From a virus (taxonomy: Duplodnaviria > Caudoviricetes): a stretch of 64,000 nt of DNA. Shown here in pieces: positions 50,063 to 60,406 of the stretch. The translations under genes were made by a program, and so were the position numbers. The notes below the pieces were generated by a model. That model saw only the letters and a list, made by a program, of their open reading frames with translations, had not been told where the DNA came from and made no database searches. The stretch is taken from positions 17,575 through 81,574 of IMG/VR virus record IMGVR_UViG_3300034410_000474; one strand, written 5' to 3'. Each line of letters begins with the position of its first letter. Position 1 is the stretch's first letter.

Positions 50063-50662
50063 TTACTTCCTTCTTTCTAGTATAGTTAAACCATTACAAT
50101 TTTGTTTGTGCTTTCTAAATTTCCATTGAGGATTAGCGATAATGAACTCAATAATAGCAGGTAATAATCCTTGATTATCCATTGCTTTACGATTAGGATT
50201 TGCAGCCCAATCAACTTGCTCATCACGTACTCCATATGTATGAGTATCGTGAAATGCTAGATATTTACGAGCAGCATTACCGTGCAATTTAAGTTCTTCT
50301 CTTAATTGCTGTTGGCTGTGCCAAGTATCAATAAAGATTAAGTCGGTTGGCTCAATAAGAATACTCAGCGTATTTGCTTTAACATATTCTACATCTTTAC
50401 CAACCTTCTTAGCAATTTTGAATAGATTCATTAGAGGATCGTGTATTTCAAGATCATATGCTCTTAATGATACAGGCGCTTTAAGAAATGCTTTTGTACT
50501 TGCACCAAAACGACTGCCAAACTCAGTAACGTGAGTACAATCTTCTGCAAGAGTTAATAAGTCGTGAAGATGTTCATCAATATCTGACTTAGTACTCTTT
50601 TCTTTTTGATACTCATTTTCTATGAGTTCGTTCCATTCACTTAAATTCATACGTCTAACCAC
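50063..50662 (-). CDS. Class I SAM-dependent methyltransferase (Methyltransf_24-like)
   Basis: VTEFGSRFGAST, DLIFIDTWHS, FHDT. Confidence 0.85.
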   Translation of the reverse strand: MVRRMNLSEWNELIENEYQKEKSTKSDIDEHLHDLLTLAEDCTHVTEFGSRFGASTKAFLKAPVSLRAYDLEIHDPLMNLFKIAKKVGKDVEYVKANTLSILIEPTDLIFIDTWHSQQQLREELKLHGNAARKYLAFHDTHTYGVRDEQVDWAANPNRKAMDNQGLLPAIIEFIIANPQWKFRKHKQNCNGLTILERRK

Positions 50663-51672
50663 CTTCTATTTTCTAATGTCCAAGTTACAACTTCAGCGAT
50701 ACGTTGATCAACTGGTCTCGGGGTCCATCCCATCTTTGCCATTCGTTCACCAGAGAGAGCATAACGAAGGTCGTGACCAGGGCGACTACTGTGGAAATCC
50801 ATGAATTCATACTTTAACTCCTTGCCTTGTGCATCGGCAATCATTTGTGCGAGTTCTAAATTGTTCAATTCAGTCGCACCACAGATATTGAACTTAGGAC
50901 ATTTAACACCGGTATTATTTTCAATGTTAAGAGTATCAGTATGTTCTAATAAGAACAGTGTAGCATCAGCAACATCTTCGGCATGAATATAATGTCGTGA
51001 TCCTGGTATTGTTTTTGTTTCATCACTGTGAATAGTTACCGTACCACCATCTCGTACATTACGAATAGTCATAGGGATAAACTTTTCTGGATGCTGTCGT
51101 TCACCAAATACGTTCATTGTATGCGTAATATAAATTGGCATATCATAAGTATTTTGGTAAGCTACTGCTAATTCCTCTCCACCAGCTTTAGATGCTGAGT
51201 AAGGATTAGTTGAATTATAACGATCATATTCGTCGTACTTAATACCTTCAGGAGCAGGACCAAAGACTTCATCAGTTGAGAAGTATAGGAAGCGTTCCAA
51301 GTTAGGTTGTTTACGAGCAAATTCTAGAATGTTACATGTACCAACAACGTTATCCATTACGAATTCCATTGGATGGTCAATTGAACGATCTACGTGAGAG
51401 CCTGCTGCCAAATGAGCAACAATATCAACGTCACCAATATCTGCTAAGAGCATTGGATTAAATTCTGCTTTTAAATCGTGAAAGATTGTACGAAGACGTG
51501 AACGTTCTTCAGGGGTGCGATCTTGTAAAAGATCATGTAATCTGTTTAGGTTACCACTATAATCTAAACGATCTACAGTAACGATATCCCAATCAGTTCT
51601 TTTGAGTACCTGGTTGATTAAGTGATGGGCAATAAAGCCACCGCCACCAGTAATAAGTATTTTCTTAGCCAT
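50647..51672 (-). CDS. NDP-sugar 4,6-dehydratase (RmlB-like extended SDR)
   Basis: ITGGGGFIAHH, HLAAGSHVDRS, STDEVFG, YSASK, RPGHDLRY. Confidence 0.92.
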   Translation of the reverse strand: MAKKILITGGGGFIAHHLINQVLKRTDWDIVTVDRLDYSGNLNRLHDLLQDRTPEERSRLRTIFHDLKAEFNPMLLADIGDVDIVAHLAAGSHVDRSIDHPMEFVMDNVVGTCNILEFARKQPNLERFLYFSTDEVFGPAPEGIKYDEYDRYNSTNPYSASKAGGEELAVAYQNTYDMPIYITHTMNVFGERQHPEKFIPMTIRNVRDGGTVTIHSDETKTIPGSRHYIHAEDVADATLFLLEHTDTLNIENNTGVKCPKFNICGATELNNLELAQMIADAQGKELKYEFMDFHSSRPGHDLRYALSGERMAKMGWTPRPVDQRIAEVVTWTLENRRWLDV

Positions 51673-51754: not shown

Positions 51755-52702
51755 TCAGAAATTGTATTTGATCGTAGCTTTAAAGCTATCATCATAATTG
51801 CGGTTTCCGTATGGACCCACCATTCCTTTGTCGTGATGTAAGTATACTCCATACTCCATCGGACCTTGATTATAAACTGCACCAAAGTAGTTAAAAGTAA
51901 AGCCGATATCATCGTCTTCTACTCTATGTGCTGAAAGAATTACGTCTTTAATTCCATAGTACATAACACCGTAGTCTTTACGGACATTACCACCATCGTC
52001 AAATTGTTCGTAACCTAATCCAATCGGTAATCCTACTGGATACAATGATGTTCCAATTGAATAACCACGTTGGGTTGTTTTATCTTCAGCACTAATTTGT
52101 AAGTATGATACATCAAAGATTGCTAAACGTGCTGTTGCACCTGCGTACATTGATTTGGTTTCTGGTTCATAACCTACAATACCACCAATTGGTAATTTCT
52201 TTCTTTGAAGTTTATATTGATTGAATTTAAATTCATCGTTATTAACCCAATCACCAAACGTAACAACTACTTTTTCTTTATGGTCGATACGTGAGTTTGG
52301 TTCAATGACAATTACTGGAGCTCCAATTTTAGATGTTTTTGCAAAACCTAAACGTTGAGCATCAGTTTCACCAATATATACTCTTGTATTTCCGATACCA
52401 AAGCCCATTTGTTTTTCTTGGACCGTGTTATCTAATGTACGATCTAACGAATAGTTAGTATCATACCGTGCTCCAGCACCTGCCCAGTTAAATGGACCAT
52501 CGTTTAGTTCAGTCTGAAACCCTGCGAAAACTTCCGCTCTTGAACTCATGTCACCTTCTGGCCATTCGCCATCGATATACATTTCAACATTACCATTATA
52601 ATATAGACCGGATTTTTCTTCTTCTTTTTGTTCATGTCCGTCTGCATAAACGTTTGTCGCAAATAGCGATAAGCACATCATTGTGCTAGTTATTAGTTTC
52701 AT
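51755..52702 (-). CDS. Outer-membrane beta-barrel (porin-like) protein
   Basis: Signal peptide MKLITSTMMCLSLFATNVYA; alternating beta-strand pattern; C-terminal ATIKYNF beta-signal. Confidence 0.7.
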   Translation of the reverse strand: MKLITSTMMCLSLFATNVYADGHEQKEEEKSGLYYNGNVEMYIDGEWPEGDMSSRAEVFAGFQTELNDGPFNWAGAGARYDTNYSLDRTLDNTVQEKQMGFGIGNTRVYIGETDAQRLGFAKTSKIGAPVIVIEPNSRIDHKEKVVVTFGDWVNNDEFKFNQYKLQRKKLPIGGIVGYEPETKSMYAGATARLAIFDVSYLQISAEDKTTQRGYSIGTSLYPVGLPIGLGYEQFDDGGNVRKDYGVMYYGIKDVILSAHRVEDDDIGFTFNYFGAVYNQGPMEYGVYLHHDKGMVGPYGNRNYDDSFKATIKYNF

Positions 52703-52775
52703 TTTTGAACCTTTCATATGTGGCGCATGTCCTTAAACGCCGGTTAACCGAATCTTCCCAGATTCATGTGAAGTA

Positions 52776-53195
52776 TTACTTCAGCCAGCCTATCTTTTCG
52801 CCAGCTGCGATTCTTCGCTCTGCTTCTGCCTTTGTACCAGGATATCTTGTTGCCCAAAGGATGATCAGCCCAAATGTAACGGCCATATAAATTGTGGCTT
52901 TTATATTTGCGACTGTTAGGAAAAATACTACTAATGAAGTTGACATTACGAAAACCATTAGGTATTTTGCTTTGGTTGGGTATACTCTATAAGTCCCCCA
53001 TTCTTTAATAAAAGGACCAAAACGCGAGTGGTTTAGAATCCAGTTATGGAATCTTTCGTTTGATTTTGCGAAGCAGAAAGTCGCTCCTAAGATTGGTGTA
53101 CTCCAAGGAAGACCTGGAAGAAGAACGCCTAGATATGCGACTCCTAATAAGATAATCCCTAACGTAAACCAAAATGCTTTTTTGATTTTATTCAT
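52776..53195 (-). CDS. YbaN/DUF454-family inner-membrane protein
   Basis: LG...GV.LPGLP..TP.L.A.FCFAKS.ERFHNW.L....FGP.I..W...K.K. Confidence 0.88.
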   Translation of the reverse strand: MNKIKKAFWFTLGIILLGVAYLGVLLPGLPWSTPILGATFCFAKSNERFHNWILNHSRFGPFIKEWGTYRVYPTKAKYLMVFVMSTSLVVFFLTVANIKATIYMAVTFGLIILWATRYPGTKAEAERRIAAGEKIGWLK

Positions 53196-53222
53196 AGTGT
53201 TTCCTTTCAAACTAAAGCGAAA

Positions 53223-54413
53223 TTACTTTAGTACTTCTTTTAACGCTTGCACCAATTGTATCATCATCACATCATCGTGATAAGGAGTTGGCGCAATTCT
53301 TAACCGCTCTGTTCCAGCCTGAACAGTCGGACTATTTATAGGCTGAATGTAAATACCAAATTCGTTAAGTAAACGATCACTTGCTTCTTTACATTTAAAA
53401 GCGTCATTAATCATTACTGGTACAATATGAGTACAGGAGTTTTCGTGTACTGGTATATTTGCATCAGCAAGCATTTCTTTTAATTTTGCGGCTCGCTCTT
53501 GATGTTGAGCCCTTAATCTAGGATTGTCACGGAGATATCTGATGGAGGCGAGAGCTCCTGCACAAATGACTGGAGAGGTTGATGTAGTAAATATAAAACC
53601 ACTAGCAACACACCTAATTCCATCAATAATACTAGAGTCAGAAACAATATAACCACCTTGTACACCAAACGCTTTACCAAGTGTACCATTGATTATATCT
53701 ACCCTGTCTGATAATCCTAGCTTCTGACAATAACCACCGCCTGTTTCGCCGTATAAACCTACCGCGTGAACTTCGTCGATATATGTCATCGCCTTATATT
53801 TATCTGCTAAATCAAGTATCTCTTCGATAGGACTAATGTCTCCATCCATAGAGTATACTGATTCAAAAACAATAATTGGAGTTTGATTACTCATTTGACA
53901 TGTTTGCAATGCCAATTCTAATTCTTCCATATTGTTATGTTCGAATACTGTTTTATCTGCTTTTGAATGATTAATACCAACAATTAATGATGCATGATTT
54001 TTAGAATCTGATACAAAACAAACGTTTGGAATAATTCGATTTAAAGCAATAAGAGTCCATTCATTAGCAACATATGCGCTTGTAAATAATAAAGCATTTT
54101 CTTTTTGGTGTAGAGTTGCAAGCTCTTTCTCTAATGTGACGTGATAATGAGTGTTACCACCAATATTACGAGTACCACCAGAACCAGATCCTGTTTGATC
54201 TAATGCGCTATGCATAGCACTTACGACATAATCATTTTGACCTTGGCCAAGATAATCATTTGAGCACCAATTTATAATATTCTTTGGAGCATATTTACCA
54301 TACCAAATAGAGCGAGGAAAGTCTCCCCGCTCTCTTAGTATATCATTAAATACTCTATATCGACCATCATCTTTATATTGATCTATAACCTGATCGAAGT
54401 ATTTGTTAAACAT
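53223..54413 (-). CDS. hemA: 5-aminolevulinate synthase (C4/Shemin pathway)
   Basis: [72 protein letters not shown]. Confidence 0.93.
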
Positions 54414-55540
54414 TAGAGACTGAATCCAGAAAATGTATCTTTATCAACATCTTGTTTAGTTCCACCTTGTACATATGAAGTAATCTCTGTTTCTTGTGGA
54501 GCAACTTGTACATCAGCTCCTGAGATCCATTTTTGAGTCCAAGGTAATGGATTGTTCTTAATAGAATACGGTGACTGTAATTTTACATTAGTCATACGAC
54601 GAGTAGCAATAAACTCGATATATTGATGTAGCAATTCAGCATTAAGACCGATCATAGAACCATCTCTAAACAAGTAATTAGCCCACTCTTTTTCTTGATC
54701 TACTGCGTCAACAAACATTTGAATACATTCAGCTTCTGTTTCTTCAGAGATCTTTACAAAATCTTTATCTTCTTTCTTTAAAAGTTTAAGCATCATTTGA
54801 GTAGAGGCAAGGTGCAAGTTTTCATCACGAGCAATAAGCTTAATAATTTTAGCGTTACCTTCCATCTTCTTTAATTCTGCAAAAGCCCAAGAACAAGCAA
54901 ATGATACGTAGAAACGAACACCTTCAAGAATGTTAACACTCATTAATGTAAGATATAATAGTTTCTTTAATTCGTACATATCAACTTTTACTTTTTTACC
55001 GTTGACAGTATGTGTGCCTTCACCTAATAGATTATAGTAACCAGTCATTTCAATAAGACGATCATAGTAACCTGAAATAGAATCTGCGCAATCAACAATT
55101 TCTTTTACATTCAACATCTCATCAAAAATCTTAGATGGATTAGAATAAATGTTACGAATAATATGTGTATATGAACGACTATGGATCGTTTCAGAGAACG
55201 TCCAAGTAATAATCCAGTTTTCGAGTTCTGGTAAAGAAACAATAGATCCAAAACTTTCAGCAGGTGCACGACCTTGTACTGAGTCTAATAGAATCTGTCG
55301 TTTAAGGTTAGACGTAAAAATATGCTGCTCATGCGCAGTTAATGCTTTAAAATCTTTTGCATCTTGATAGATGTCAACTTCTTCTGGTCGCCAGAAGAAA
55401 CCAAGTTGCTTATCAGTCAACTGATCAAACTGCTTGTACTTAAGTGTGTCGTAACGTTGAATTGTTGGTCCACCGGTTGGATCTAAAAAAGAACTAACGG
55501 ATGTATGGTCAACGCGGTTATTTACGTCAAAAACGCTCAT
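54413..55540 (-). CDS. nrdB: Ribonucleotide reductase class Ia beta subunit
   Basis: [42 protein letters not shown]. Confidence 0.98.
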
Positions 55541-55607: not shown

Positions 55608-57917
55608 TTAAATTTTGCAAGATTCGCAATCTTCATCATCTATTTCGCCTTGCGCGAGTTCGTCATCACCGGACATTTTATCGACATCGATTTCGCCTTG
55701 ACCATCGAACGTATTAAAATAATACAATTGCTTACCACCGTACTTATAGAACATAAGTAAGTGTTGCAATAATACGCTCATTGGTATCTTTTCGTCTTCA
55801 AAGAATTGTGGGTTATAACTTGTATTTACAGAAATTCCTTGGTCAATATATTTCTGTAGAACAGCCATAATTTTTAAGTAACCTTCAGGAGATTTTTGAT
55901 CCCACAACAGATCATATTTATTCTTTAAACGTCTGTACTCTGGAACTACTTGCTTCAGAACACCGTGTTTACTTTGTTTTACACTAATTAAACTGCGTGG
56001 TGGTTCAATACCGTTGGTAGCGTTTGCGATTTGAGCTGACGTTTCAGATGGCATAAGAGCCATTAATGTAGAGTTACGAATACCTGTTTCTTTTAATTGC
56101 TTACGCAATCCTTTCCAATCTTGACGTTCTTTATGTTTTACTAATTCATCAAGATCTTTCTTATATGTTTGGTTGGGTGTAATGCCTTGGCCATACTTAG
56201 TTTCATCAATACCAGAGATGTTACCCATTTCAATTGCAAGATCAGCAGAAGCTTTGGTAAGATAATATGCCCAAGCTTCAGCGTACTCATCGACCAATTC
56301 TAGTCCCTTAGAATCAATATCTTGATAACTTAAATCGTTCTTTGCCATCCAATATGCAAAGTTAATAATTCCAATACCGATAGGGCGACGTTTTTCTGTT
56401 GATAATTGAGCAGCAACAATTGGATAATTTTGATAACTTAACAAAGCATCTAATCCACGAACTGCAAGGTCACATGCCTTTTTAAAATCTGATGTACAGC
56501 GTATGTTACCCCAGTTAATAGCTGATAAAGTACAAAGACTGATTTCTCCTTCTTTATCATTAACATCGTTTAATGGTTTAGTTGGTAGATCAATTTCTGC
56601 ACAGAGATTTGATTGGCGAATAGGAGCAACTTCTGGTAAGAATGAACCATGCTCATTTGCATTATCAACATTTTGTAGATAGATACGACCTGTGTTTTTA
56701 CGTTCTTCCATAAACATACTGAATAGAGAAGCGGCAGGAATAGTTTTCTTACGTAATCTTGTATTGCGTTCTGCAGTTTCATATAATCTTTTAAATTCAT
56801 CTTGATCAGCATAGAATGCATCATACAAACCAGGAACATCACTTGGTGAGAACAAAGTAATATCTCCACCAGTTACTAGACGCTCATACATTAACTTATT
56901 AAACTGTACTCCATAATCCATATGACGAACACGATTATCTTCAGTACCTTTATTGTTTTTCAATACAAGAAGATCTTCTGCTTCATAGTGCCAAATAGGA
57001 TAATAGATTGTAGCTGCTCCACCACGTACGCCACCTTGAGAACAAGATTTAGTAGCAGCTTGGAACATTTTATAGAAAGGAATTATTCCTGTATGAAAGG
57101 CGTCACCTTTACGAATAGGGGTTCCAATAGCTCGTATTGAACCTCCTCCAATGCCGATTCCGGCCTTTTGTGAAACGTACTTAACAATACTTGAGCTAGT
57201 AGCATTAATACTATCAAGACTATCGTCAGTCTCAATAAGGACGCAAGAAGAGAATTGTCTTTGCGGTGTTCTAACACCAGCCATAACAGGAGTAGGCAAA
57301 CTAATATCGTGTAAACTAATAGCATCATAATAATCCTTTACATATGATAAGCGAGTTTCTTCGGGATAATTATGAAATAGCGTTGCAGCAATAAGAATGT
57401 AACACATCTGTGGAGTCTCAAAGATCTCACCAGTAACTCTATTCTGGCATAGATATTTACCACGTAATTGTTCCATTGCAACATAAGTAAGACTTTCATC
57501 TCTATCATGTTTAATAAAGCCATTGATCTTTTCCCACTCATCATCGTTATAATAATTAATGAGTTCAGGATCATAAAAGCCGTTTTCAATATTTCTTTCA
57601 ACCAATTCTTTAACAGCACAAGGTTCGTATCCACCATAAACTTCTTTACGAAGACCATAGTTGATTAAACGTCCACCTACGAACTGATAATTTGGAGTTT
57701 CTTCGCTGATGAGATCAGCTGCTGCTTTAATAAGAGTTTCTTGTATTTCTTTAGAACTAATTCCAGTGAAAAATTGTATCTGGCTTTTTATTTCTACTTC
57801 TGATGGGGAAACACCTGTAATATCGTTACACGCGTGAAAAACTACCTTATGGAGCTTTTCGACATTTAATGGCTCCTTTGATCCATCACGCTTTGCAACT
57901 TGTATAGTTTGTATCAT
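55608..57917 (-). CDS. nrdA: Ribonucleotide reductase class Ia alpha subunit with ATP cone
   Basis: KRDG, PTPVMAG, SSCVL, SNLCAEI, CTLSA, C-terminal CESCKI. Confidence 0.98.
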   Translation of the reverse strand: MIQTIQVAKRDGSKEPLNVEKLHKVVFHACNDITGVSPSEVEIKSQIQFFTGISSKEIQETLIKAAADLISEETPNYQFVGGRLINYGLRKEVYGGYEPCAVKELVERNIENGFYDPELINYYNDDEWEKINGFIKHDRDESLTYVAMEQLRGKYLCQNRVTGEIFETPQMCYILIAATLFHNYPEETRLSYVKDYYDAISLHDISLPTPVMAGVRTPQRQFSSCVLIETDDSLDSINATSSSIVKYVSQKAGIGIGGGSIRAIGTPIRKGDAFHTGIIPFYKMFQAATKSCSQGGVRGGAATIYYPIWHYEAEDLLVLKNNKGTEDNRVRHMDYGVQFNKLMYERLVTGGDITLFSPSDVPGLYDAFYADQDEFKRLYETAERNTRLRKKTIPAASLFSMFMEERKNTGRIYLQNVDNANEHGSFLPEVAPIRQSNLCAEIDLPTKPLNDVNDKEGEISLCTLSAINWGNIRCTSDFKKACDLAVRGLDALLSYQNYPIVAAQLSTEKRRPIGIGIINFAYWMAKNDLSYQDIDSKGLELVDEYAEAWAYYLTKASADLAIEMGNISGIDETKYGQGITPNQTYKKDLDELVKHKERQDWKGLRKQLKETGIRNSTLMALMPSETSAQIANATNGIEPPRSLISVKQSKHGVLKQVVPEYRRLKNKYDLLWDQKSPEGYLKIMAVLQKYIDQGISVNTSYNPQFFEDEKIPMSVLLQHLLMFYKYGGKQLYYFNTFDGQGEIDVDKMSGDDELAQGEIDDEDCESCKI

Positions 57918-57958: not shown

Positions 57959-57966
57959 TATTTATA
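57959..57966 (-). promoter_or_regulatory. Late promoter-like TATAAATA before nrdA (overlaps thyA stop)
   Basis: Exact consensus; AT-rich context so chance match possible. Confidence 0.55.
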
Positions 57967-58825
57967 TTGCCATATTAGCTTTAATAGTATCATGGTGTAA
58001 ATAATTTGTCAATCTAAAAGATTTATATTCATCAATTCTATATTGACCGTTTAATTTTAATTCGAACATTCTATTAATGTCTAATGTTGGTAAGTCATAA
58101 TGATCACGTTCGAGTTGTTGTTTTACTTGTTTGAAGTGATCGTTGTAAATATGAGCATCACCAATTGTATGTACATAATCGCCTACTTCAAGTCCGCAAT
58201 GATGAGCTAGGATATGAGTTAATAAAGCATATGATGCAATATTAAATGGTACTCCTAGAAATGCATCAGCACTTCTCTGATACATTTGACAATTAAGCTT
58301 ACCGTTGTATACCCTAAACTGAGATAAGGTATGACAGGGAGGTAAAGCCATCTTATCAATTTCTGGTGGGTTCCAAGCTGAAAGAATAATACGTCTGCTA
58401 TCAGGGTTGTTCTTTAATTGATCGATAATCGTTTTGATTTGATCTGTACCACCAAAGCTACGCCATTGAGAACCATATACTGGTCCAAGCTCTTTATACA
58501 TTGAACCATTATGATATCCAAGATCTTTAGCTTGAGAATCAGCGTTTGCAGTCCATATAGTAGTTTTACCATCAAGGCTTAATCTGTTTATGCCATATGT
58601 AAGTTCAGCAAGTCTACGTTCATCGGTACTTCCTTCAAGAAACCATAGTAGTTCTGCAACTACTGATTTCCATGCAAGTTTCTTAGTAGTAACTGCAGGA
58701 AATCCTTTTTGAAGATCGAATCGCATTTGATAACCAAATATAGATCTTGTACCAACTTTGGTTCGATCACTTACATCTTCGCCTTTGTCCATAATGTCTC
58801 TGAGTAACTTATGATATACTTCCAT
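57962..58825 (-). CDS. thyA: Thymidylate synthase
   Basis: ELLWFL.G, GPVYGSQWR, ALPPCH, YQRSAD..LGVPFNIASY, GDAHIY. Confidence 0.98.
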   Translation of the reverse strand: MEVYHKLLRDIMDKGEDVSDRTKVGTRSIFGYQMRFDLQKGFPAVTTKKLAWKSVVAELLWFLEGSTDERRLAELTYGINRLSLDGKTTIWTANADSQAKDLGYHNGSMYKELGPVYGSQWRSFGGTDQIKTIIDQLKNNPDSRRIILSAWNPPEIDKMALPPCHTLSQFRVYNGKLNCQMYQRSADAFLGVPFNIASYALLTHILAHHCGLEVGDYVHTIGDAHIYNDHFKQVKQQLERDHYDLPTLDINRMFELKLNGQYRIDEYKSFRLTNYLHHDTIKANMAI

Positions 58826-59289
58826 TAATCTTTAATCCATTTTGTTATTGTTCCGAAACTTTTAATCTCCGTGCTCTCAGCACTATAGTATTCTGTAATC
58901 TTTTCTTTATCTAAGAATGTATCACATTTATAATAACCAGTCACTTCATTCAACCATAGTTCATCTATATAATATAACATAGATTCTACTAATTGAGCTC
59001 CACCGATAATCCAAACATCGTTTTTAATTTGTGGTAAGATCTTTAATATAGATTTTAAATCACCAACAACATCTGCACCTATTGGACCATTACCTGAAGT
59101 CACTACAACGTTATCTCTATTGGGTAATTTGAACGGTAAGCTTTCCCAAGTTTTGCGTCCCATAATAACTGTTGAATGTTCAGTACATTCTTTAAACCAT
59201 TTTAAATCTTCACTATTCTTTGGCCAAGGTAATCCACCGTCTTTGCCAATGCCCCATTCCTGATCGTGAGCAAGTATTCCTCTTATCAT
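58825..59289 (-). CDS. folA: Dihydrofolate reductase
   Basis: GIGKDGGLPW, DL.WFK, MGRKTWESLP, LPNR, WIIGG. Confidence 0.96.
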   Translation of the reverse strand: MIRGILAHDQEWGIGKDGGLPWPKNSEDLKWFKECTEHSTVIMGRKTWESLPFKLPNRDNVVVTSGNGPIGADVVGDLKSILKILPQIKNDVWIIGGAQLVESMLYYIDELWLNEVTGYYKCDTFLDKEKITEYYSAESTEIKSFGTITKWIKD

Positions 59290-60284
59290 GTTTTTCTCCA
59301 AGCTTGAAACTTCAACTCTGCTTGTAATCCTTTATGCGTATTATCTTCGATTAGTTTCTCGACGTTAACACCTTTGAGATGCATATCATTAATATCTTTT
59401 GCCACAACATTATCAGGCCATATACATATCTTGTAACCATTCTTGATTACACGTTCCATACGTTTATGAATCTCTTTATTACGTGGCTCAGCATCGAATA
59501 CATATATCGCATTTTCATTTGCAGAATTACCGTTACCTTCAGCGCCATTCATAGAGATAGCGTTTTCAAGGAACATACTGTCAAGTGCGCCTTCGACGAT
59601 ATAGTAAGGATGATCGAAATTAACTTTGTCGAGACCAAAGATTTTTGGTCTATCATCAAACATTATAGTTATATATCTAATTCCATCAGGGTTGAATCCA
59701 CGAGCTGATACGCCAAAACAATTGCCGTGTTCATCAACAAATGGTATAACAAGCCTTGGTTCATCTTTGCCAATATAATCAAACTTATCAGGAATAATCG
59801 TATTAATCCAAGTTTTAAACTTAGGAGCAAAGAACATTCTATAATGATGTTGAGGAGGTATTTGCCGCTTGACTACATATTTCTTAACTGGATGATCGTG
59901 ACTGAGTTGGCTAATTTTCTTTAATTCTTTAAGAGGATTTTTCTTAAATACGGGAGCTTTTGTTTTAAAATCAGTTTCTTTTTTAGTATCATCGGCGTGA
60001 GTATTTGCCACAAATTTTTCAGCAATGTAGTCATTATATAACAATGGATCGACGGTCTTCAGAAAATAATTAAAGCCCATCGAGGCACCACAGTTATGAC
60101 AATAATAGTTAAATTTGTTATCCCTTTCTAGAAGCCAACCACGGGCCTTAGAGCGGTTCTTCTGTGAATCACCACAGATAGGACATCTGAAGTTTATTTT
60201 ATAGGGATTAGTATGCTTGATCTTAAAATTATCCAGTCGACCAGATAACATCTGGGAGTACTGAATATCAACAAATTCTGCCAT
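59286..60284 (-). CDS. gp61: DNA primase gp61
   Basis: RCPICGDS...KARG..Y.CHNCG, EPRLVIP, VEGALDS, FDAEPRN. Confidence 0.95.
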   Translation of the reverse strand: MAEFVDIQYSQMLSGRLDNFKIKHTNPYKINFRCPICGDSQKNRSKARGWLLERDNKFNYYCHNCGASMGFNYFLKTVDPLLYNDYIAEKFVANTHADDTKKETDFKTKAPVFKKNPLKELKKISQLSHDHPVKKYVVKRQIPPQHHYRMFFAPKFKTWINTIIPDKFDYIGKDEPRLVIPFVDEHGNCFGVSARGFNPDGIRYITIMFDDRPKIFGLDKVNFDHPYYIVEGALDSMFLENAISMNGAEGNGNSANENAIYVFDAEPRNKEIHKRMERVIKNGYKICIWPDNVVAKDINDMHLKGVNVEKLIEDNTHKGLQAELKFQAWRKT

Positions 60285-60317
60285 AATATACACATTCCAT
60301 AGGATTACAATAATATA

Positions 60318-60353
60318 GTTGACATTATACCACAAAAGCAGCGTAATGTCAAC
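60318..60353 (-). promoter_or_regulatory. Primase promoter embedded in 10-bp inverted repeat (near copy of 29314-29355)
   Basis: GTTGACATTA-N16-TAATGTCAAC; minus TTGACA-N17-TATAAT. Confidence 0.85.
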
Positions 60354-60377
60354 GTATATTTACTTTTACTTTAGATT

Positions 60378-60406
60378 ATTATATATTAGTATTGATCAAA
60401 TGTCAA
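60378..60406 (-). promoter_or_regulatory. Second, tandem early promoter upstream of primase
   Basis: TTGACA-N17-TATAAT. Confidence 0.8.

Follow-up and report, generated by a model that had tools for sequence, protein, structure and literature searches.

A viral 5-aminolevulinate synthase gene and a virus-specific DUF454 gene as a probable two-gene auxiliary module of a marine T4-like myophage

What is the use to a marine T4-like myophage of a gene for 5-aminolevulinate (ALA) synthase (ALAS) followed by a gene for a small membrane protein of the DUF454/YbaN family, and does it matter that both stand directly behind a ribonucleotide reductase (RNR) gene? This question is raised by a 64-kb stretch of DNA (hereafter the window, to which all plain coordinates refer), which is part of the 81.6-kb IMG/VR virus record IMGVR_UViG_3300034410_000474, whose completeness is rated 38%. 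An earlier note on this DNA had described the two genes as a tetrapyrrole and iron module that is translationally coupled to nrdB. The analysis presented here leads to a partly different answer. It appears likely that both genes form a two-gene auxiliary module, in which the viral ALAS gene (valaS) is accompanied by a virus-specific DUF454 gene that has been selected to stay beside it. The placement next to nrdB is a matter of local synteny, with no functional tie to the RNR iron centre. The features at the centre of this question are the following:

53223..54413, minus strand: viral 5-aminolevulinate synthase gene (valaS), 396 aa (TIGR01821; relatives in the PDB; published family, PMC11480375)
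52776..53195, minus strand: DUF454/YbaN-family inner-membrane protein, 139 aa (PF04304; alignments; AlphaFold2 model; linkage to ALAS)
54413..55540, minus strand: class Ia ribonucleotide reductase small subunit NrdB (NF006576, 526 bits against a cut-off of 346; phrog_86)
54409..54413, minus strand: TAATG, in which the nrdB stop and the ALAS start overlap (sequence)

The arrangement that had been described for these genes could be found again, with the nrdB stop and the ALAS start overlapping in TAATG at 54409-54413 and a DUF454/YbaN gene following the ALAS gene. The longest open reading frame (ORF) of the latter extends from 52776 to 53210. Its likeliest start is the ATG at 53195, after AAAGGAAAC, which leaves 27 nt between the ALAS stop and DUF454.

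As far as its sequence can tell, the 396-aa protein is a true Shemin-type 5-aminolevulinate synthase. It reached 553 bits with the model TIGR01821 (5-aminolevulinate synthase; EC 2.3.1.37), for which the cut-off is 338.55, and remained under the cut-offs of the sister models for BioF (308 of 426 bits), Kbl (297 of 460) and serine palmitoyltransferase (SPT; 223 of 500). The closest solved structures were the bacterial ALAS 7x98 (E 6e-131) and 2bwn (E 3e-117), with Kbl reaching only 1e-55. Aligned with 2bwn, the residues K247, H140, D213, H216, R20, T363 and R372 stand opposite K248, H142, D214, H217, R21, T365 and R374, which we take, from the Rhodobacter capsulatus ALAS structure, to be the catalytic and substrate-binding positions. 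These residues are invariant among 11 diverse viral ALAS sequences. The Shemin-type assignment made in the earlier note and its statement that the pyridoxal phosphate (PLP) and catalytic motifs are retained are both in agreement with these data.

A different alpha-oxoamine synthase of the Kbl, BioF or SPT-like type, forming another product, would share the common PLP fold (PF00155), and the activity of this exact protein is predicted from its sequence. Nevertheless, this alternative is extremely improbable, as TIGR01821 is far exceeded while every other model of this enzyme group stays far under its own cut-off, and as the E values of solved ALAS and Kbl structures (about 1e-131 against 1e-55) differ widely. 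In addition, the ALAS-type residues are present, including the threonine of the PTV loop and the succinyl-CoA arginine, the protein nests within alphaproteobacterial ALAS on a phylogenetic tree, and a member of the valaS family has been assayed as ALA-forming (PMC11480375).

A phage ALAS as such has already been published, and the enzyme of the window is a new member of a known viral family. Wegner et al. (2024, Nat Commun) described viral alaS (valaS) from marine and freshwater phage contigs clustering with pelagimyophages, either alone or together with hemO and pcyA/X (PMC11480375). The vAlaS of a freshwater phage (CB_2) complements an E. coli ALA auxotroph and produces ALA; vAlaS is about 55% identical to the ALAS of Pelagibacteraceae, the known heme-feedback site is absent from it, and some valaS phages were predicted on gammaproteobacterial hosts (PMC11480375). 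The proposal of the earlier note that the phage uncouples host control of tetrapyrrole flux fits with the hypothesis and the assay published for valaS (PMC11480375). Neither DUF454 or YbaN nor nrd is mentioned in Wegner et al. (2024) or its supplementary files (PMC11480375), which leaves the conserved partner DUF454 and the position next to RNR genes undescribed there. Matches to PF01126 or PF05996, which would indicate a hemO/pcyA/X cassette, were not obtained in the 81.6-kb record (38% complete); as far as this fragment reaches, it thus corresponds to the published form with an individual valaS.

Relatives of the ALAS are numerous, with 454 in IMG/VR and thousands in a large protein database. 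A tblastn search for valaS among 50,697 records of deposited phages yielded only BioF/Kbl-type matches with at most 34% identity, mostly in bacterial DNA filed as phage, and thus no isolate carrying valaS in this collection. PHROGs holds no family for either ALAS or DUF454. In a maximum-likelihood tree the viral ALAS sequences form one clade (Shimodaira-Hasegawa-like approximate likelihood ratio test (SH-aLRT) support 98), which is sister to Pelagibacteraceae (99) and nested inside alphaproteobacterial ALAS. The HemA phylogeny, which had been proposed as a check, consequently places the donor clade among the Alphaproteobacteria. Three ALAS genes on chromosomal contigs of 96-500 kb (L088 and L092, Neisseriaceae; L089, a Francisella metagenome-assembled genome (MAG)) also fall inside the viral clade, being 57-63% identical to the enzyme of the window. 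They may reflect a transfer of phage-type ALAS into cells; no DUF454 was found in the genomes of L088 and L089. ALAS-like genes that are 44-49% identical to the phage enzyme occur in many Bacteroidota MAGs (Chitinophagaceae, Cyclobacteriaceae, Saprospiraceae) and in some MAGs of Actinomycetota and Burkholderiales (L105-L160), which indicates that the family is not confined to Alphaproteobacteria.

The association of ALAS with DUF454 is the observation that carries the proposed module. It was surveyed in 87 viral-type ALAS loci, comprising 80 from IMG/VR and seven short contigs filed in MAGs of unrelated phyla; 11 of the 87 end too early to judge the presence of DUF454. Of the 76 loci that extend at least 1.5 kb beyond ALAS, 64 have DUF454 downstream on the same strand, 37 of them directly adjacent and 27 separated by 0.8-2.6 kb. 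The neighbourhood survey that had been suggested in the earlier note thus reveals a conserved ALAS-DUF454 module. The reverse search gave a similar picture: of the 80 viral DUF454 loci closest to that of the window, 62 have an ALAS, in 61 cases directly upstream. Directly adjacent copies of the two genes stand in 88 loci, whose flanks combine 22 gene families on the upstream and 18 on the downstream side in 31 different ways, and the identity of DUF454 goes down to 39% among loci keeping the pair. That the flanks turn over while the pair stays argues for selection.

The pair is a phage-made assembly. DUF454 was not found within 8 kb of any of 73 genuine bacterial ALAS loci, in any of the four genomes with the nearest bacterial ALAS or in any of 81 sampled Pelagibacterales genomes; it is present in 51 of 151 Pseudomonadota genomes. 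The seven contigs filed in MAGs (L081-L087) carry viral-type ALAS and DUF454 under the names Saprospiraceae, Vibrio, Crocinitomicaceae, Polynucleobacter, Neomarinimicrobiota and Flavobacteriales. Most of them are short (1-20 kb), with L086 lying near the end of a 335-kb contig, and they are probably phage DNA binned into bacterial MAGs.

Where ALAS and DUF454 are separated, the genes between them encode an alternative oxidase (AOX)/PTOX (PF01786), a 2-oxoglutarate (2OG)-Fe(II) oxygenase, a Cpn10 co-chaperonin or a ClpP-like protease. Another recurrent insert is a membrane/coiled-coil protein of 274-292 aa without a family match. Examples are given here:

L017:7200-7763, L039:3203-3772, L053:7199-7795, L033:8012-8275 and L039:4820-5455: inserted genes of other valaS lineages

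The DUF454 protein itself matches PF04304 with 91.5 bits (cut-off 35.1) over model positions 1-114 of 115. With the E. coli-type equivalog NF007818 it scored only 66.6 against a cut-off of 163, and it is therefore a member of the family, not a YbaN orthologue. Identities between viral and bacterial DUF454 are only 24-32%, and the protein of the window is, according to the alignments, a member of a virus-specific subfamily with a conserved C-terminal tail. The AlphaFold2 model (pLDDT 83) consists of helices throughout, the hydrophobic ones covering residues 3-25, 32-45, 74-95 and 98-116. The protein would accordingly have four predicted transmembrane (TM) helices, with the conserved loop rich in C, H and W, at about residues 44-73, and the virus-specific tail, at about 117-139, placed in the cytoplasm by the positive-inside rule.

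Phages without ALAS provide a second link between DUF454 and the formation of ALA. In some of these loci a stand-alone ORF of 92-96 aa, situated directly upstream of DUF454, matches the dimerisation domain (GlutR_dimer) of glutamyl-tRNA reductase (GluTR), with PF00745 scores of 37.6 bits in L210 and 35.4 bits in L203 (cut-off 22.9). GluTR is an ALA-pathway enzyme of the C5 route. A scan for such mini-proteins yielded eight IMG/VR loci, with four lineages over the Pfam cut-off, and representatives of these lineages are:

L210:7718-8008, L203:5365-5643, L283:4001-4252 and L280:4001-4240: GluTR-domain mini-ORFs, 84-96 aa (PF00745, 29.7-37.6 bits)

The mini-ORF directly adjoins DUF454 in five loci from three lineages and lies 3.9 kb from it in the fourth lineage. 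In L276-L279 DUF454 is downstream of the mini-ORF and overlaps it, and in L283 the two are divergent. No ALAS was found at any of the mini-ORF loci. The mini-protein might serve the phage as a decoy for the C5-route ALA enzyme of the host, or might modulate this enzyme. In L234, a phage contig of 266 kb on which ALAS is absent within 8 kb, a heme oxygenase gene (PF01126; 7408-7962, minus strand) divergently adjoins DUF454.

Links to iron are also found for cellular members of the family. A cluster of Fur sites is predicted for E. coli ybaN, which is a direct member of the Fur regulon (PMC2189734, PMC7157518), a DUF454 gene of Avibacterium is induced under iron restriction (PMC7970244), and an E. 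coli ybaN mutant turned up in a screen tied to an iron-deplete diet of C. elegans (PMC12706066). In three bacterial proteins (P0332, P0307 and P0341), DUF454 is joined to a TonB C-terminal domain, an ABC ATPase or a complete half-transporter of an ABC exporter, and the gene for the last of these fusions belongs to a two-gene ABC exporter operon. In single cases, a bacterial DUF454 gene follows a ferrochelatase gene or stands beside a TonB-dependent receptor gene.

Could DUF454 nevertheless be an unrelated passenger, for example a superinfection exclusion or lysis-timing membrane protein, that stands beside valaS by shared descent only? A number of observations weigh against a selected module, and the first three of them would suit such a passenger. 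On the ALAS tree a basal viral clade (L058, L064, L072, L076, L077) is without DUF454 and the remaining 48-row clade has it. The pairing probably arose once and was then kept, and with a single origin part of its conservation is inheritance, so that the raw counts prove less. Both genes also occur alone, as DUF454 is missing from 12 ALAS loci whose downstream DNA extends over at least 1.5 kb, and ALAS from 11 DUF454 loci with at least 4 kb of DNA upstream. In bacteria the surroundings of DUF454 are heterogeneous: when the 104 ORFs beside 30 Pseudomonadota DUF454 genes were tallied by Pfam family, with some noise from high-GC shadow ORFs, DnaX/apt came up three times and HemN-like proteins twice, and no heme or iron family dominated. 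The adjacency to ferrochelatase had to be rejected as a general rule, since it was seen in none of the 51 Pseudomonadota genomes, the nearest distance being 7 kb. The statement of the earlier note that YbaN genes often neighbour heme and iron genes thus finds some support in the place of ybaN in the Fur regulon (PMC7157518, PMC2189734) and little in the gene neighbourhoods. Three further points concern function and expression. When the DUF454 model was compared with the PDB by Foldseek, no fold match came up (best E 1.3). The vAlaS that was assayed functioned in E. coli with no DUF454 from a phage present, though E. coli has its own ybaN. Four RNA-labelled seawater runs yielded nothing but short Logan contigs from relatives that are 88-97% identical. 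Two of these contigs span the ALAS/DUF454 junction; two of the four libraries were probably made from DNA, however, and a contig is no proof of a transcript.

Against a passenger speaks that the pair outlasts all 31 flank combinations and that inserts such as the AOX, the 2OG oxygenase and Cpn10 never part the two genes by more than 2.6 kb and never switch the strand. A passenger would also not account for the ALAS-less phages in which DUF454 stands by GluTR-dimerisation mini-genes, in two arrangements, or by a heme oxygenase gene, nor for the cellular iron links (PMC7157518, PMC7970244; the TonB_C and ABC fusions). An unrelated passenger appears unlikely on this evidence, and a DUF454 gene held beside valaS by selection is the reading that we prefer.

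The position behind nrdB suggested still another explanation, in which ALAS and YbaN would be functionally coupled to NrdB, with iron being co-managed for the di-iron RNR and for heme and translational coupling setting the stoichiometry. It can be said in its favour that the TAATG overlap is real in the window and its closest relatives, that ALAS comes straight after an RNR gene in several lineages and that E. coli ybaN is Fur-regulated (PMC7157518). However, a conserved overlap, as expected for an nrdB-hemA unit, was not found. Only six of the 23 loci in which the same class Ia NrdB precedes ALAS have it, and the remaining 17 show gaps of 2-781 nt (five tight junctions, and twelve gaps of 258-781 nt). 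The RNR genes ahead of ALAS also vary by lineage, with class Ia NrdAB being replaced by an ATP-cone-NrdB plus NrdA or by NrdA plus a glutaredoxin (Grx)-NrdB fusion. The two unusual small subunits are:

L005:3000-4319 and L017:4681-5991: RNR small subunits encoded immediately before valaS; the N-terminal domain is an ATP-cone in one and a glutaredoxin in the other

Both architectures are reported for Mn-using class Id enzymes. Many ALAS-DUF454 pairs have no RNR gene upstream at all, many of the 22 gene families found before the pair are not RNR, and ALAS itself uses no iron. The scarcity of the overlap and the varied or missing RNR upstream imply that the placement after nucleotide genes is shared synteny within one T4-like group. 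A coupling to NrdB is very unlikely, and the co-management of iron with RNR that the earlier note had inferred finds no support other than the adjacency.

The pair lies in an uninterrupted minus-strand run that leads from a 349-aa ORF over DHFR, ThyA, NrdA, NrdB, ALAS and DUF454 to a 320-aa secreted protein and an epimerase. The other members of this run and the promoter matches at its head are:

60324..60406, minus strand: tandem sigma-70-type promoter matches (consensus match), at the start of the gene run closed by ALAS and DUF454
59286-60335, minus strand: 349-aa ORF, which opens the nucleotide-metabolism run
58825..59301, minus strand: dihydrofolate reductase, DHFR (PF00186, 112.7 bits)
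57962..58825, minus strand: thymidylate synthase, ThyA (PF00303, 340 bits)
55608..57917, minus strand: class Ia ribonucleotide reductase large subunit NrdA with ATP-cone (PF02867, PF00317, PF03477)
51755..52717, minus strand: 320-aa secreted protein, porin/YgjJ-like (signal peptide, C-terminal Phe in the translation)
50647-51672, minus strand: NAD-dependent epimerase, the last of the listed run

Two perfect matches to TTGACA-17-TATAAT (12/12 each) at 60406-60378 and 60352-60324, 54 nt apart, precede the 349-aa ORF as promoters predicted from the consensus alone. Between the genes of the run no terminator-like site was found, which makes it probable that the ALAS-DUF454 pair is co-transcribed with the run. 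The sole terminator-like hairpin of the minus strand (54333-54309) was not counted as a terminator because it lies inside the ALAS coding sequence. Within ALAS there is also a T4-type late promoter motif, TATAAATA, at 53333-53340, 138 nt before DUF454. It was taken as a chance match and not as a late promoter of DUF454, since the motif is rare in relatives, occurring in three of 101 distinct sequences in the 200 nt before DUF454 and in five of 99 in the 100 nt before ALAS. Late-type motifs with TATAAATA stand before most of the plus-strand structural genes. These genes encode, according to PHROGs, a portal, scaffold, major head protein, tail sheath and large terminase, and mark the window, which has a GC content of about 35%, as part of a T4-like myophage.

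The gene for the 320-aa protein adjoins the pair in this lineage only and is outside the conserved pair, following DUF454 in L001, L004, L011 and L164-L170. The protein has no Pfam, NCBIfam or PHROG match. Its language-model features resemble those of YgjJ and Porin_4/8 clusters (0.95-0.96), and it looks like a phage-encoded outer-membrane beta-barrel. An equation with the 274-279-aa membrane proteins that lie between ALAS and DUF454 elsewhere was rejected, these being unrelated, and a search for homologues in 41 Pelagibacterales genomes, which was run without a positive control, gave none.

The window is near-identical in seawater metagenomes of at least six studies, and for its host the donor clade of ALAS points to SAR11-like Alphaproteobacteria. 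An assignment from the capsid failed, as the phages phiM12 of Sinorhizobium (64.5%), Melnitz of OM43 (62%) and HTVC008M of Pelagibacter (61.7%) and cyanophages (about 61%) are nearly equidistant. The suggestion of the earlier note that the sequence points to the host class is consistent with the sister position of the viral ALAS to Pelagibacteraceae; the capsid does not discriminate, however, and DUF454 is missing from all 81 Pelagibacterales genomes. An alphaproteobacterial host is a reasonable guess.

From these data the following course of events can be proposed for an infected cell. The pair, located at the end of the DHFR-ThyA-NrdA-NrdB run, would probably be transcribed with this run from sigma-70-type early promoters, and ribosomes that finish nrdB would re-initiate on ALAS at the TAATG overlap. 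The viral enzyme would condense glycine and succinyl-CoA to 5-aminolevulinate and feed heme and tetrapyrrole synthesis independently of host control. DUF454, which would be dispensable for ALAS catalysis, might act at the membrane on the consequences of the altered ALA supply. We would guess at a role in handling, sensing or moving tetrapyrroles or iron, or in the docking of ALA-pathway enzymes. Going one step further, we tentatively put forward that DUF454 might be a dedicated membrane component of ALA/tetrapyrrole homeostasis, which is deployed together with a takeover of the ALA-forming step of the host. The device for this takeover may be a feedback-free ALA synthase or, elsewhere, a stand-alone protein consisting of the GluTR dimerisation domain.

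Among auxiliary metabolic genes (AMGs), that of viral ALA synthase is already established, and one more copy of valaS adds little. What is new here is the conserved, phage-assembled pair of valaS and DUF454, together with the parallel pair of GluTR domain and DUF454. The comparative signal, drawn from several hundred relatives, is that DUF454 is held beside a tetrapyrrole entry enzyme despite extensive genome shuffling. This suggests that, for a safe rewiring of the heme supply, the enzyme by itself is not enough for phages, and it corrects the tempting idea of a phage heme synthesis tied to the iron centre of the phage's own RNR. The linkage also makes the function of YbaN directly testable by means of ALA, porphyrin, heme and iron phenotypes and of binding to ALAS or GluTR. 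Should the proposed role in homeostasis be true, it would give a first functional handle on a family that is present in about one third of the sampled Pseudomonadota genomes and is Fur-regulated in E. coli.

Compared with known systems, the ALAS of the window aligns over its full length with the bacterial enzymes (R. capsulatus 2bwn, PDB 7x98), with all catalytic and substrate residues in place, and stops about eight residues short of the end of the 403-aa chain of 7x98. It shares with the published valaS (PMC11480375) the enzyme family, the origin from uncultured aquatic T4-like (pelagimyophage-like) contigs and, being about 55-59% identical to Pelagibacteraceae ALAS, the distance to its cellular relatives. 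The assayed valaS, however, is that of the freshwater phage CB_2, whereas the phage of the window belongs to a marine lineage. DUF454 has the family and the core motif LPxLPxxP ... CFAKSSxRxHxWL..H..FGP.I..W in common with E. coli YbaN (PF04304), which is likewise a small helical membrane protein. The C-terminal tail RYPGSxxExxRRIxxGxKIGWxK, conserved in the viral forms, is absent from the aligned bacterial members, and unlike most of these the viral genes adjoin ALA or heme genes. The tetrapyrrole AMGs of cyanophages (ho1, pebS, pcyA/pcyX; discussed in PMC11480375) are phage-borne genes of the tetrapyrrole pathway as well. They act past heme, in its degradation and in bilin formation, whereas the ALAS-DUF454 module stands at the entry step of the pathway and includes a membrane protein.

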